From NCBI RefSeq assembly GCF_030013205.1, contig NZ_CP122648.1: a DNA stretch of 64,000 bases. One strand, written 5' to 3'. The notes beneath the pieces were generated by a model. The model worked only from the letters and a program-made list of their open reading frames with translations, ran no database searches and was not told where the DNA came from. Source of the DNA: Escherichia coli (GTDB taxonomy: Bacteria > Pseudomonadota > Gammaproteobacteria > Enterobacterales > Enterobacteriaceae). Shown in pieces: positions 2,866-3,984 of the stretch. Made by a program: the position numbers and the translations under genes. Numbering within the stretch: position 1 is the first letter of the stretch; each line of letters starts with the position of its first letter.

Positions 2866-3435
2866 ATGACATACGAGTACAACCCCTTCTGGCAACAACG
2901 TATCCGTGAGACGGTGCTGCGCGCACTGGATGTTCATCCCCGTCTGACGGCATTGCGGGTTGACCTGCGTCTCCCGGATGTACCGGCAGCAACGGACGCA
3001 GCTGTGATATCCCGCTTCATCAATGCCCTGAAAGCCCGAATCGACGCTTACCAGAAGCGTAAGCGCCGTGAAGGTAAACGCGTACATCCCACGACCCTGC
3101 ATTACGCCTGGGCCCGGGAATTCGGGGAGCTTAAAGGCAAAAAACACTATCACCTCCTGCTGCTGGTCAACCGGGATACCTGGTGTCGTGCCGGCGATTA
3201 CCGCGCTCCGAGATCACTGGCCGGGATGATTAAACAGGCCTGGTGCAGTGCCCTGGGGGGGGATGCCGGGCCTTATGCCACGTTGGCGCATTTTCCTGAC
3301 ACGTCGGCGGTGTGGCTGGAACGCGATGATGACACTGGCTTTCAGCAGGTGCTGGAACGTGCTGACTATCTGGCGAAGGAACATACCAAAGCTCACGCCA
3401 CTGGTGAGCGCAACTTTGGCTGCAGTCGTAGCTGA
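2866..3435 (+). CDS. YagK/YfjJ-like protein (inovirus Gp2-like, HUH-type replication-initiator motif)
   Basis: 189-aa ORF with ribosome-binding site GGAGA upstream; contains KHYHLLLLV (His-hydrophobic-His) and a downstream Tyr; family assignment from memory. Confidence 0.55.
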   Translation: MTYEYNPFWQQRIRETVLRALDVHPRLTALRVDLRLPDVPAATDAAVISRFINALKARIDAYQKRKRREGKRVHPTTLHYAWAREFGELKGKKHYHLLLLVNRDTWCRAGDYRAPRSLAGMIKQAWCSALGGDAGPYATLAHFPDTSAVWLERDDDTGFQQVLERADYLAKEHTKAHATGERNFGCSRS

Positions 3436-3600
3436 GCCCGACAGACGAGTTATCTGACCTCAGTGTGATGACGCGCTCACGGCCACCACACTGATTTTCC
3501 CTTCTGAGACCGGACTGAAACCGCCATTCACACCAGACCAGGCTGCCCGTACCGGGACGGCTGTTGCCTGCGTGTCGTCTGGCGCTAAGGAACATATACT

Positions 3601-3984
3601 ATGTACGCAAAATCTTTTCTCGCACTTGATGGCAACGGACGTCTGACCGGTGCCCGTACCGCACAGACTGCACCTTATGATCGCTACACCTGCCACCTTT
3701 GCGGCAGTGCACTCAGATACCACCCGCAATACGACACTGAACGTCCCTGGTTTGAACACACTGACGACGGGCTGACGGAGCACGGTCAGCAGTGCCCTTA
3801 TGTCAGACCAGAACGCAGGGAGATACAACTGATTAAGCGTCTGCAGCAATTCGTACCGGATGCCTTACCCGTGGTGCGTAAAGCCAGCCGGCACTGCAGA
3901 CAATGTCATCAAGATTATTATGGGGAGCGGTACTGCACGCACTGCCATACCGGGCACTTCAGTGAGGAGGGGTGCCCCTATTAA
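3601..3984 (+). CDS. cysteine-rich hypothetical protein (possible zinc ribbon)
   Basis: 127-aa ORF with several CxxC pairs (CHLCGS, CRQCHQ, CTHCH); stop lies 13 bp from the IS110 transposase stop on the opposite strand. Confidence 0.45.
   Translation: MYAKSFLALDGNGRLTGARTAQTAPYDRYTCHLCGSALRYHPQYDTERPWFEHTDDGLTEHGQQCPYVRPERREIQLIKRLQQFVPDALPVVRKASRHCRQCHQDYYGERYCTHCHTGHFSEEGCPY

Follow-up and report, generated by a model that had tools for sequence, protein, structure and literature searches.

In Escherichia coli K-12, the YagK/YfjJ family is represented by YagK (from CP4-6) and YfjJ (from CP4-57). Both are 'y-ome' members listed as uncharacterised, and no functional study or assay of YagK/YfjJ, of PF11726 or of DUF7828 was found in the literature searched. 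In elements of the IS110 group, the bridge RNA lies in a long non-coding left end that precedes the recombinase gene, and the right end is short (PMC11208160). In the IS1111 group the left end is short, the bridge RNA is held by a long right end that follows the recombinase gene, and there are sub-terminal inverted repeats of 7-17 bp (PMC11208160).

Here, a locus that joins a YagK/YfjJ family gene (ORF1), a zinc-ribbon gene (ORF2, also referred to as ZR1) and the IS110 family element ISEc20 is described. It lies in the window, the 64,000 nt stretch of E. coli DNA that was analysed, and its features are listed in Table 1. The gene calls match those that RefSeq gives for an identical strain, and all three genes are annotated already. 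The locus is an ordinary, decayed, IS-scrambled island remnant, and its genes are known from RefSeq under identical accessions.

Table 1. Positions of features in and around the ORF1-ORF2-ISEc20 locus
Feature	Position	Strand	Details
Leader element	2814-2868	+	Directly upstream of ORF1; T-run and AC (TTTTTTAC, 2814-2821), then hairpin (2824-2868)
ORF1	2866-3435	+	189 aa; YagK/YfjJ family single-Tyr HUH endonuclease-like protein; RefSeq WP_000220729.1, 'inovirus Gp2 family protein'
E85 codon (W82-x-x-E85)	3118-3120	+	Candidate third metal ligand
KHYHLLLLV	3142-3168	+	HUH motif H94-Y95-H96 (H94 codon, 3145-3147; H96 codon, 3151-3153), then hydrophobic strand to N102
Y168-L-A-K171-x-x-T-K175	3367-3390	+	YxxK-type candidate catalytic Tyr motif (Y168-L-A-K171, 3367-3378); predicted helix
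ORF1-ORF2 spacer	3436-3600	+	165 nt; position of an AlpA-family HTH gene in other genera
ORF2 (ZR1)	3601-3984	+	127 aa; two zinc sites; RefSeq WP_000271026.1, 'putative zinc ribbon protein'
GGGG run, left IS junction	3969-3972		Matches GGGG at 5422-5425; recombination core, exact crossover ambiguous
TGC CCC TAT TAA	3973-3984	+	Last three codons and stop of ORF2, from the ISEc20 end
ISEc20 (IS110 family, IS110 group)	3973-5425	-	Limits +/- 3-4 nt owing to the G-run core
ISEc20 right end	3973-3997		~25 nt
Transposase ORF	3998-5194	-	398 aa; stop at 3998-4000
ISEc20 left non-coding end	5195-5425		231 nt; expected bridge-RNA region
Right IS flank	5426-5540	+	Not the continuation of ORF2; CdiA-orphan locus

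The HUH protein

The identification of ORF1 as a YagK/YfjJ family protein that is intact, compact and HUH endonuclease-like is well supported. In a Pfam profile search, it matched PF11726 (YagK_YfjJ_C) with 158.3 bits (cut-off 25.8), and residues 23-187 align to positions 3-170 of the 170 in the profile. The motif set consists of R31-x-D33-L34, W82-x-x-E85, H94-Y95-H96 and Y168-x-x-K171, with a single candidate catalytic tyrosine and no helicase domain. Conservation was counted in 115 diverse homologues sharing 33-50% identity. E85, H94, H96 and W126 are invariant (115/115), Y168 and K171 are each present in 114, N102 in 113 and K175 in 112, and position 95 is Y or F in 114. By analogy with HUH enzymes in general, E85 is a candidate for the third metal ligand. 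This signature of a HUH nickase is near-universal in what is a large family. The dN/dS values for ORF1 (0.13-0.28) reveal purifying selection.

In the AF2 model, the HUH motif, with its two histidines around a hydrophobic residue and further hydrophobic residues following, falls on a predicted strand (E93-102). The candidate catalytic YxxK motif lies further towards the C-terminus, on a predicted helix (H156-170), the arrangement expected of Y1-type enzymes. The modelled fold is of the Rep/relaxase alpha-beta type with a central antiparallel sheet, and the best fold matches of the predicted structure are HUH nucleases. PDB sequence searches using either the single sequence or a profile returned nothing for ORF1, and no NCBIfam match and no known Rep_1/2/trans or relaxase profile (E<=0.1; Pfam, NCBIfam) were found. 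In PHROGs, the only match was to one family of unknown function.

The family is present in ~70% of complete E. coli genomes. A tblastn search of 50,697 phage genomes found a homologue in one, an unverified, unannotated 4.4-kb contig, and 64 of 72,556 plasmids, nearly all of them large, carry one. As it is near-absent from phages and rare on plasmids, there is no indication that the family provides the Rep of small autonomous replicons. Assignment of ORF1 to a known rolling-circle Rep or conjugative relaxase family was considered and is not supported, given that no profile match was found, that homologues are rare on small plasmids and that no origin was identified at the locus. This lowers the claim to membership of those families, not the working hypothesis that DNA is nicked. 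Membership of the inovirus gpII family is also not supported because the profile score is below threshold (see below) and homologues are near-absent from phage genomes. The RefSeq name, 'inovirus Gp2 family protein', is misleading and should not be taken to mean that the gene came from a phage.

The zinc-ribbon protein

ORF2 is a real protein under selection (dN/dS 0.09-0.18) with two conserved zinc sites. The first is formed by C31, C34, H53 and C65 in an N-terminal DUF7828 domain (PF25165; 107.9 bits, cut-off 25.7, E 2.1e-31), and the second by C99, C102, C112 and C115 in a C-terminal Zn_ribbon_11 domain (PF11682; 25.2 bits, cut-off 24). The CxxC pairs are C31xxC34, C99xxC102 and C112xxC115. 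A total of 333 homologues was found, with Enterobacterales named as the source in nearly every case. In an alignment of 38 ORF2 family sequences, C34 and C65 are invariant and the remaining six ligands are each conserved in at least 90%; DUF7828 was matched by all 38 sequences and Zn_ribbon_11 by 36. The ligands are retained even in the ZR2 paralogues (see below), which are only 20-29% identical. The AF2 model of ORF2 has a pLDDT of 82.9, and no fold relative of it was found in the PDB; PDB sequence searches and NCBIfam returned only noise.

The Pfam scores, the conservation of residues in homologues and the dN/dS values establish that the motifs in both proteins are real signal, not chance. 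The original prediction, made from the DNA alone, of a 189-aa YagK/YfjJ-like protein with KHYHLLLLV and a Tyr downstream was therefore correct, including its position, and the 127-aa ORF noted there for its several CxxC pairs is a zinc protein. The profile searches that it had proposed as a check assigned Pfam families to each.

ISEc20 and the end of ORF2

The transposase matches NF033542 (239 bits, cut-off 140), PF01548 (E 9e-49) and PF02371 (E 7e-22), and RefSeq names the element ISEc20. In 1,119 genomes there is a place that covers 80% or more of the IS query. The ends were set by comparing five copies in different contexts, and the sequence shared by all five runs only from GGGTGCCCC to AACGGGG. 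At the junction, the IS-free allele reads GAGGAGGGGG followed by TGGCAG, and the divergence of the IS-free alleles in SA186 and FDAARGOS_536 falls exactly at 3973-3984. The sequence of these 12 nt is identical in ISEc20 copies found beside flhD, beside frmR, in an O145 prophage and on a plasmid. The IS end thus overlaps the last 12 nt of ORF2, and codons 125-127 and the stop codon are IS-derived, the native end GTG GCA GAA TGA (VAE and stop) having been swapped for one encoding CPY and stop. The RefSeq product WP_000271026.1 is consequently a chimera, with its last three residues encoded by ISEc20. We note that IS ends can silently finish truncated ORFs in this way.

The original prediction suggested that the IS had inserted at the 3' edge of the gene pair, with ORF2 ending 13 nt from the transposase stop. 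The gap between the ORF2 stop, ending at 3984, and the transposase stop is indeed 13 nt, and the IS is located at the 3' end of the pair. However, the IS end is inside ORF2, rather than abutting it. Comparison with IS-free alleles, which had also been proposed, placed the insertion point at the G-run.

ISEc20 belongs to the IS110 group because there are 231 nt of non-coding sequence upstream of the transposase gene and ~25 nt downstream; the recombinase is of the DEDD plus Transposase_20 type. The predicted RNA fold of the left end has a z-score of -2.1. It had been suggested that the transposase might instead be of the IS1111 type, with part of 2866-3984 being an IS-internal, bridge-type RNA. 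IS110 family elements do encode a non-coding RNA (PMC11208160) and the IS end does enter the last 12 nt of ORF2. However, there is no shared sequence to the left of ~3970 in the ISEc20 copies from four other contexts, and a right end of ~25 nt, which is too short for a bridge RNA, set against 231 nt upstream is the IS110 group layout. ORF1 and ORF2 have hundreds of homologues, belong to Pfam families, have dN/dS values well below 1 and are found without any IS in thousands of genomes. An Rfam scan of 2300-5800 (E<=1) found no match, and therefore no known RNA family is present in 2866-3984 or in the IS. We consider the IS1111 explanation to be extremely improbable, and the mapping of the IS ends refutes it. 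None of 2866-3969 is IS-internal. The observations that the original prediction had named as refuting it were not made, since homologues of ORF2 exist, purifying selection acts on it and up to 3969 it is outside the IS.

Operon and island context

The leader element directly upstream of ORF1 is the sole conserved cis element identified at this locus. Its hairpin pairs the Shine-Dalgarno sequence GGAG and the ATG of the HUH gene, and the RNA has a minimum free energy of -20 kcal/mol (z = -4.9), with none of 200 shuffled sequences folding as well. It is kept in orthologues from nine other genera (nhmmer E 1e-11 to 1e-18), with one compensatory pair in the hairpin alignments, and is recognisable 5' of the Providencia/Proteus homologues (~44% identity). 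There is one copy per locus. The leader could equally be a promoter or operator, a translational hairpin or a nick site. Scans of 2000-5800 for promoters, terminators and repeats yielded numbers close to those expected by chance, and iterons of the kind found at origins were not evident. The spacer between ORF1 and ORF2 includes a hairpin, TCAGTGTGATG-N13-CACCACACTGA (3460-3494), found in the inverted-repeat scan.

The genetic context was examined in 80 loci from about 40 genera (the locus scan was made from a 12-sequence alignment). The fullest form of the operon, found in other genera, consists of genes for the HUH protein, the excision regulator AlpA, ZR1 and ZR2. In loci L016-L024, L031, L046 and L086, the HUH gene and ZR1 are separated by an AlpA-like ORF; L018 (Hafnia paralvei ATCC 29927) and L022 (Siccibacter colletis) are examples of islands that have the complete operon. 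In all, an AlpA family gene is present in 49 of the 80 loci, and 45 of the 50 such ORFs found are on the same strand. With a single exception, the near-orthologous loci (>=60% identity and enough flank; 18 loci in all) have a zinc-ribbon gene downstream of the HUH gene in the same orientation, and most of the more distant homologues in the scan, among which the YagK/YfjJ-level relatives fall, lack one. Exact-protein look-up of distant homologues returned only contigs of <=1.5 kb. Frequent neighbours in the 80 loci are genes for RadC, DUF932, an antirestriction protein, a YeeP-type GTPase, DUF3987, CbtA/CbeA and an integrase.

In IS-free E. coli alleles, ORF2 is followed by a translationally overlapped ZR2 paralogue and then by a second YagK/YfjJ (HUH) paralogue. 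As these alleles and the other genera carry further operon genes, the two-gene module of the original prediction has to be replaced by a larger one that is truncated here. It is well supported that the module is the remnant of a conserved operon from the core of CP4-57-like, tRNA-integrating islands of Enterobacterales. No AlpA remnant was found within the window (tblastn), and AlpA was lost in the E. coli lineage.

Origin of the locus

The right flank of ISEc20 comes from elsewhere. In IS-free genomes, this DNA is found after a G9 run, 3' of a CdiA-CT/VENN orphan toxin fragment, and it aligns to three loci (L009, L010 and L011) directly after GGGGGGGGG. A reconstructed IS-free junction joining the two flanks was found in none of 5,426 genomes. 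As the second flank is from an unrelated CdiA-orphan locus, the sequences point to an IS-associated rearrangement that would have joined the module to CdiA-orphan DNA. Recombination between two ISEc20 copies may have produced this arrangement, and we put it no more strongly because neither of the simple-insertion parent junctions was found in the 5,426 genomes. That ISEc20 recombined at the G-run, 12 nt before the ZR1 stop, in this porcine-ETEC lineage is well supported. The element took the place of the last three ZR1 codons, eliminated ZR2 together with the HUH paralogue that follows it, and fused the module to DNA from the CdiA-orphan locus. Because the operon is truncated in the window, what is left of it in this decayed E. 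coli genomic island has most likely lost its mobility, with two surviving genes intact.

Possible functions

The likely role of the HUH protein is nicking of excised-island DNA for replication or transfer. Excision driven by Int/AlpA would come first. The HUH protein would then recognise its cognate site in the island circle and nick a single strand with the aid of a divalent metal, coordinated by H94, H96 and E85, and Y168 would form a 5'-phosphotyrosine link. The free 3'-OH could prime rolling-circle replication, or the nicked strand could enter a helper conjugation apparatus, and the zinc-ribbon proteins may be DNA-binding accessories. As ZR1 has no structural relative, a DNA-binding role for it is a guess. 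Overall, we give slightly better than even chances to the account in which a truncated island operon encodes a HUH protein that nicks the excised island, zinc-ribbon proteins are its accessories, and ISEc20 was responsible for the truncation.

Cleavage might not be involved if the HUH fold has been co-opted for sequence-specific DNA binding that controls the expression of island genes, with autoregulation via the leader and the zinc ribbons as partners. HUH origin-binding domains bind DNA specifically, the leader inverted repeat that overlaps the Shine-Dalgarno sequence and ATG resembles an operator or translational control site, and the module is near genes for the regulators Hha/YmoA and AlpA. 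However, the presumed metal ligands and Y168/K171 are near-invariant across homologues of 33-50% identity, which is hard to explain without catalysis, and a purely regulatory protein is for this reason disfavoured and appears quite unlikely. The conserved catalytic residues are also consistent with a defence or anti-defence device that nicks incoming single-stranded DNA (filamentous phage or conjugative-plasmid intermediates) or the origin of a competitor, with the zinc ribbons as sensors, and that has no part in replication or transfer of the island itself. Islands of this type are rich in genes for defence and anti-defence, with antirestriction, type I R-M and toxin-antitoxin genes often found nearby, and yfjJ in K-12 adjoins the AbpAB (yfjK/yfjL) defence genes. 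Against this, no PADLOC model matches ORF1, ORF2 or ZR2 (E<=0.01), the strongest conserved linkage is to the same-strand gene for AlpA, an excision regulator, and no phenotype is reported in the literature searched, making such a device very unlikely.

We are similarly doubtful of a reading of ORF1 as a Y1 HUH enzyme that resembles transposases or recombinases (RAYT or IS200-IS605 TnpA type) and is not a replication initiator. Such an enzyme would rearrange or mobilise DNA by acting on a hairpin and adjacent short motif, for example the T-run and hairpin of the leader. The protein is compact, with a single tyrosine and no helicase domain, and upstream of the gene there is a conserved hairpin flanked by a conserved motif, but the leader element is single at each locus, rather than forming paired ends or dispersed repeats, and the gene has a fixed position in islands that have their own tyrosine integrase.

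The role in nicking of excised islands can be extended to a more general proposal, namely that YagK/YfjJ HUH proteins are the missing nicking enzyme, either a replication initiator or a non-canonical relaxase, of the CP4-57-like tRNA islands that are very common in Enterobacterales, co-expressed with AlpA, acting on the leader T-run/hairpin and helped by a CoiA_N-like zinc-ribbon pair. In this specific form the proposal is tentative and unlikely to be correct. If true, it would explain the horizontal spread of islands that lack recognised mob or rep genes and carry genes of the plasmid-leading-region type (antirestriction, RadC, DUF932). The combination of a nickase signature, operon partners (AlpA and two zinc-ribbon proteins) and an upstream hairpin provides a definite hypothesis on the biochemistry of this uncharacterised family.

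Comparison with known systems

PF11726 includes ORF1 as well as YagK and YfjJ of K-12, and the islands are alike in that they are cryptic, of the P4-integrase type and carry AlpA, DUF3987/YfjI, antirestriction, RadC and CbtA/CbeA genes. The ORF1 subfamily differs in its length of 189 aa and in the DUF7828 zinc-ribbon genes that follow, which most of the more distant homologues in the 80-locus scan lack, and plasmid-borne copies annotated yagK are only ~38% identical to ORF1. Unlike small Rep-type HUH nucleases, ORF1 is encoded on the chromosome in an island, rather than on a small plasmid or virus, and it has no detectable sequence similarity to solved structures such as RepB of pMV158, SIRV1 ORF119 or the parvovirus NS1/Rep domains. 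A weak match to inovirus gpII (PF23343, REP_ORF2-G2P) covers the HUH strand (residues 56-119) and is in keeping with one enzyme superfamily, but the score of 26.6 bits is below the cut-off of 27.8.

The C-terminal CxxC...CxxC ribbon of ORF2 is that of Zn_ribbon_11, above the cut-off for that family. Its N-terminal CxxC...(W)F-x-H...C arrangement resembles CoiA_N (PF25164), which gave a weak match to four of the 38 ORF2 family members (best E 0.0055, below any curated threshold). Unlike in CoiA, no nuclease domain follows the zinc finger in ORF2.

ISEc20 resembles IS621 and the other IS110 group elements with bridge RNAs (Durrant et al. 2024, PMC11208160) in having a DEDD and Transposase_20 recombinase. 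It shares with these elements a long non-coding left end, a short right end and an equal short core at both junctions, and differs in that ISEc20 copies are found at G-runs and not at REP sequences.

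Genes and annotation

Positions 2400-5800 are 100 % identical to the chromosomes of approximately 20 porcine ETEC/O139 E. coli, and positions 1-3000 to those of K_EC180, ETEC4067 and relatives. The RefSeq annotation of K_EC180 includes the same ORFs at the same coordinates as the window, so that everything in the flagged region is already annotated. We regard the anatomy and identity of the region, as described here, as very nearly certain.

Features of the HUH/zinc-ribbon locus and its surroundings, with RefSeq names from K_EC180 where quoted
Feature	Position	Strand	Details
CbtA/YeeU-family antitoxin/YeeT block	within 1-2400		
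Hha/YmoA pseudogene	1971-2146		
Small ORF	2465-2728	-	WP_032240437.1
Leader element	2814-2868		
ORF1, HUH gene	2866-3435	+	'inovirus Gp2 family protein', WP_000220729.1
Inverted repeat in spacer 3436-3600	3460-3494		11 bp, 13-nt loop
ORF2, ZR1	3601-3984	+	'putative zinc ribbon protein', WP_000271026.1
ISEc20	3973-5425	-	
ISEc20 transposase	3998-5194	-	'IS110-like element ISEc20 family transposase', WP_001372615.1
ISEc20 left end	5195-5425	-	
Ail/Lom gene	5756-6313		
Sulfatase-like/phosphoethanolamine-transferase-like gene	7089-8692		two ORFs, RefSeq frameshift
P4-type integrase	8789-10051		adjoins tRNA-Phe
tRNA-Phe	10249-10324		site of the island holding the locus

The HUH-type protein

The original prediction, made from the sequence alone, correctly located KHYHLLLLV (residues 93-101) in the 189-aa ORF1 protein and a Tyr-containing segment (Y168-L-A-K171) downstream. 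The profile search that it called for matched PF11726 YagK_YfjJ_C (158 bits, cut-off 25.8); PF23343 REP_ORF2-G2P, at 26.6 bits, fell just under its threshold of 27.8. At E<=1e-3, the hits of an exhaustive HMMER search comprised 682 cluster representatives. When ORF1 was aligned with 114 full-length homologues (33-50 % identity), E85, H94, H96 and W126 were invariant in all 115 sequences, Y168 and K171 were retained in 114, and R31, D33, L34, W82, N102 and K175 in at least 90 %. Conservation of this kind, comprising an R-x-D-L strand, W-x-x-E, HUH and YxxK, is what characterises a functional single-tyrosine HUH enzyme. No relative was detectable in sequence searches against solved structures. 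Confidence in the AlphaFold2 model is high (pLDDT 93.7, pTM 0.90), the next-ranking matches to the predicted fold being Helraiser, AAV Rep, TnpA-REP and nanovirus/geminivirus Rep. The dN/dS values against orthologues were 0.13-0.28.

Immediately upstream of the HUH gene, a T-run, TTTTTTAC, is followed by a hairpin (MFE -20 kcal/mol, z = -4.9) in which both the Shine-Dalgarno sequence and the ATG are sequestered. This leader element is present in a single copy per locus, is kept in nine other genera (at least 10 genera overall) with one compensatory pair, and is recognisable upstream of Providencia/Proteus homologues with approximately 44 % protein identity. Possible roles are those of a promoter/operator, a translational switch or the nick site of the enzyme itself. 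Divergent from the HUH gene is a small ORF, annotated as 65 aa but 87 aa from the first TTG, with a CxxC...CxxC motif, a hydrophobic C-terminus and only sub-threshold Pfam matches, to zinc ribbons; THO-006 has it annotated at an equivalent position.

The zinc-ribbon protein

The Cys-rich 127-aa ORF2 was also as predicted, with C31xxC34, C99xxC102 and C112xxC115, plus H53 and C65, and its end does lie 13 nt from the transposase stop codon. The corresponding profile search returned PF25165 DUF7828 (108 bits) and PF11682 Zn_ribbon_11 (25.2, cut-off 24). There are 333 homologues, with source names that are almost all Enterobacterales. The eight presumed zinc ligands and a W-F-x-H motif are kept in 38 orthologues and paralogues with identities as low as 20 %. 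The tail beyond G118 is highly variable; CoiA_N is matched weakly by 4 of the 38. The dN/dS values were 0.09-0.18. The ORF2 model is fair (pLDDT 82.9), and a PDB fold search with it found no relative. From the families, homologues, conserved ligands and low dN/dS, ORF2 is a real protein and not the product of IS-end sequence; the refuting case, an ORF that lacks homologues and aligns to an IS, does not apply. At residue 97 (3889-3891), ahead of the second zinc site, the window has Arg in place of the nearly invariant Trp of W-x-C99; the IS-free SA186 allele also has Arg, and the change is therefore older than the IS.

ISEc20 and the junction

The ISEc20 transposase matches PF01548, PF02371 and NF033542 (239 bits), and the IS sequence was found in 1,476 of 5,426 complete genomes. 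The ends were mapped by aligning five copies, namely those in the window, adjacent to flhD, adjacent to frmR, in an O145 prophage and on a plasmid. They share GGG-TGCCCCTATTAAG (about 3970-3973) through ...AGTAACGGGG (5425), and all five sit at G-runs, which in the window are at 3969-3972 and 5422-5425. This mapping assigns the last 12 nt of ORF2 (TGC CCC TAT TAA, 3973-3984) to the IS, and the tail of ORF2 is chimeric and IS-encoded. It also leaves 231 nt of non-coding sequence upstream of the transposase and approximately 25 nt downstream. A long left end with the bridge RNA in it and a short right end typify the IS110 group, and the IS1111 group has the reverse arrangement (Durrant et al., PMC11208160). 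On the basis of its layout, ISEc20 belongs to the IS110 group, and the suggestion that it might be of the IS1111 subgroup, with IS-internal RNA in this region, was rejected. Such RNA within 2866-3969 is ruled out by the mapped ends and the layout, and Rfam gave no match there. The left end, the expected bridge-RNA region, also had no Rfam match; it folds somewhat better than shuffled sequences (z = -2.1).

Comparison with IS-free alleles, as had been proposed, showed that identity to SA186 and FDAARGOS_536 ends exactly at 3972. The IS-free form of the right flank (5426-5540) directly follows a G9 run (loci L009-L011), itself downstream of CdiA-CT/VENN orphan toxin fragments. The IS-free alleles thus show that, in its native context, each flank ends at a G-run, and that these contexts are unrelated loci and the two flanks non-contiguous. 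The reconstructed IS-free junction (…GAGGAGGGG + ATCTTAGG…) had no full-length match in any genome. The simplest reading is that two ISEc20 copies, or the IS and a second G-run target in cis, recombined and that the intervening DNA was thereby deleted or rearranged. As neither parent junction expected from simple insertion was found in 5,426 genomes, this step is one that we infer.

The native operon and its island

In the IS-free alleles, ZR1 ends GGG GTG GCA GAA TGA (…G-V-A-E*) and coincidentally has the same length, 127 aa. The stop codon overlaps the start (ATGA) of ZR2, a second zinc-ribbon gene (product 29 % identical to ZR1), which is followed by a second, divergent YagK/YfjJ paralogue. 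In SA186 (L006 5053-5844) this paralogue is split, and in a Salmonella record (L097 5950-7158) two family members are side by side; the native cassette may include HUH paralogues in tandem. The zinc-ribbon gene was found in 3,763 of 5,426 genomes. A lone 279-aa E. coli record, P0013, includes PF11726, PF25165 and PF11682 in an apparent fusion, which could be an artefact of a deletion or frameshift but, if real, would support a physical partnership of the two proteins.

When a single genome from each species was scanned, 80 loci from approximately 40 genera were recovered. Among near-orthologous loci (at least 60 % identity, adequate flank), the HUH gene is in all but one case followed by a zinc-ribbon gene in the same orientation, and most loci have the ZR1-ZR2 tandem; including some distant homologues, 18 loci have the downstream gene. 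In other genera, a gene for an AlpA-family HTH protein, an excision regulator, lies between the HUH gene and ZR1; no AlpA remnant was found in the E. coli spacer (165 nt in the window). The commonest neighbours were AlpA (49/80 loci), RadC and DUF932 (35/80 each), a YeeP-type GTPase (28/80), a WYL regulator (25/80), an antirestriction protein (21/80), DUF3987 (20/80), CbtA (16/80) and CbeA (15/80), together with type I R-M genes and integrases, and 45 of the 50 AlpA ORFs found are on the strand of the HUH gene. Together these genes make up the core conserved in CP4-57-like islands. The pair in the window thus represents the front end of a larger, truncated operon: the predicted position of the IS at the 3' edge of the pair holds, but the module has more than two genes, is truncated, and the IS end lies inside ORF2.

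The island in the window is decayed. To the left of the module are DUF957, a DUF5983 pseudogene, CbtA, the YeeU-family antitoxin, YeeT and the Hha/YmoA pseudogene. The CbtA block is approximately 1.4 kb from the HUH gene, compared with approximately 4 kb in typical loci, and the genes that normally separate the two (RadC, antirestriction, DUF932 and GTPase) are missing. To the right, the Ail/Lom gene is followed by the frameshifted sulfatase-like gene, which precedes the island integrase.

Possible function

The HUH protein combines catalytic-type residues with an HUH-like fold and is under purifying selection; its gene lies in integrative islands, in an operon that also encodes an excision regulator and two zinc proteins. 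That it nicks DNA for replication or transfer is the leading proposal, though a tentative and rather doubtful one. After excision, it would nick a site on the island circle via Y168, with a metal held by H94, H96 and E85, and the nick would start rolling-circle replication or permit entry into a helper conjugation system; both zinc proteins, ZR1 and ZR2, would be DNA-binding accessories. Several observations speak against this mechanism. A defined origin is lacking, our literature search found no experiments on YagK or YfjJ, both of which are listed as uncharacterised, and the family is found in 1 of 50,697 phage records (an unverified contig) and on 64 of 72,556 plasmids, nearly all of them large. 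The module could instead serve in defence or anti-defence, or the HUH protein could be a RAYT-like recombinase or a non-catalytic regulator.

AlpA, ZR2 and the downstream paralogue are missing from the operon in this strain, and the module here is therefore probably no longer mobile, a remnant in which two genes are intact. The RefSeq label 'inovirus Gp2' for ORF1 does not match where the family is found.
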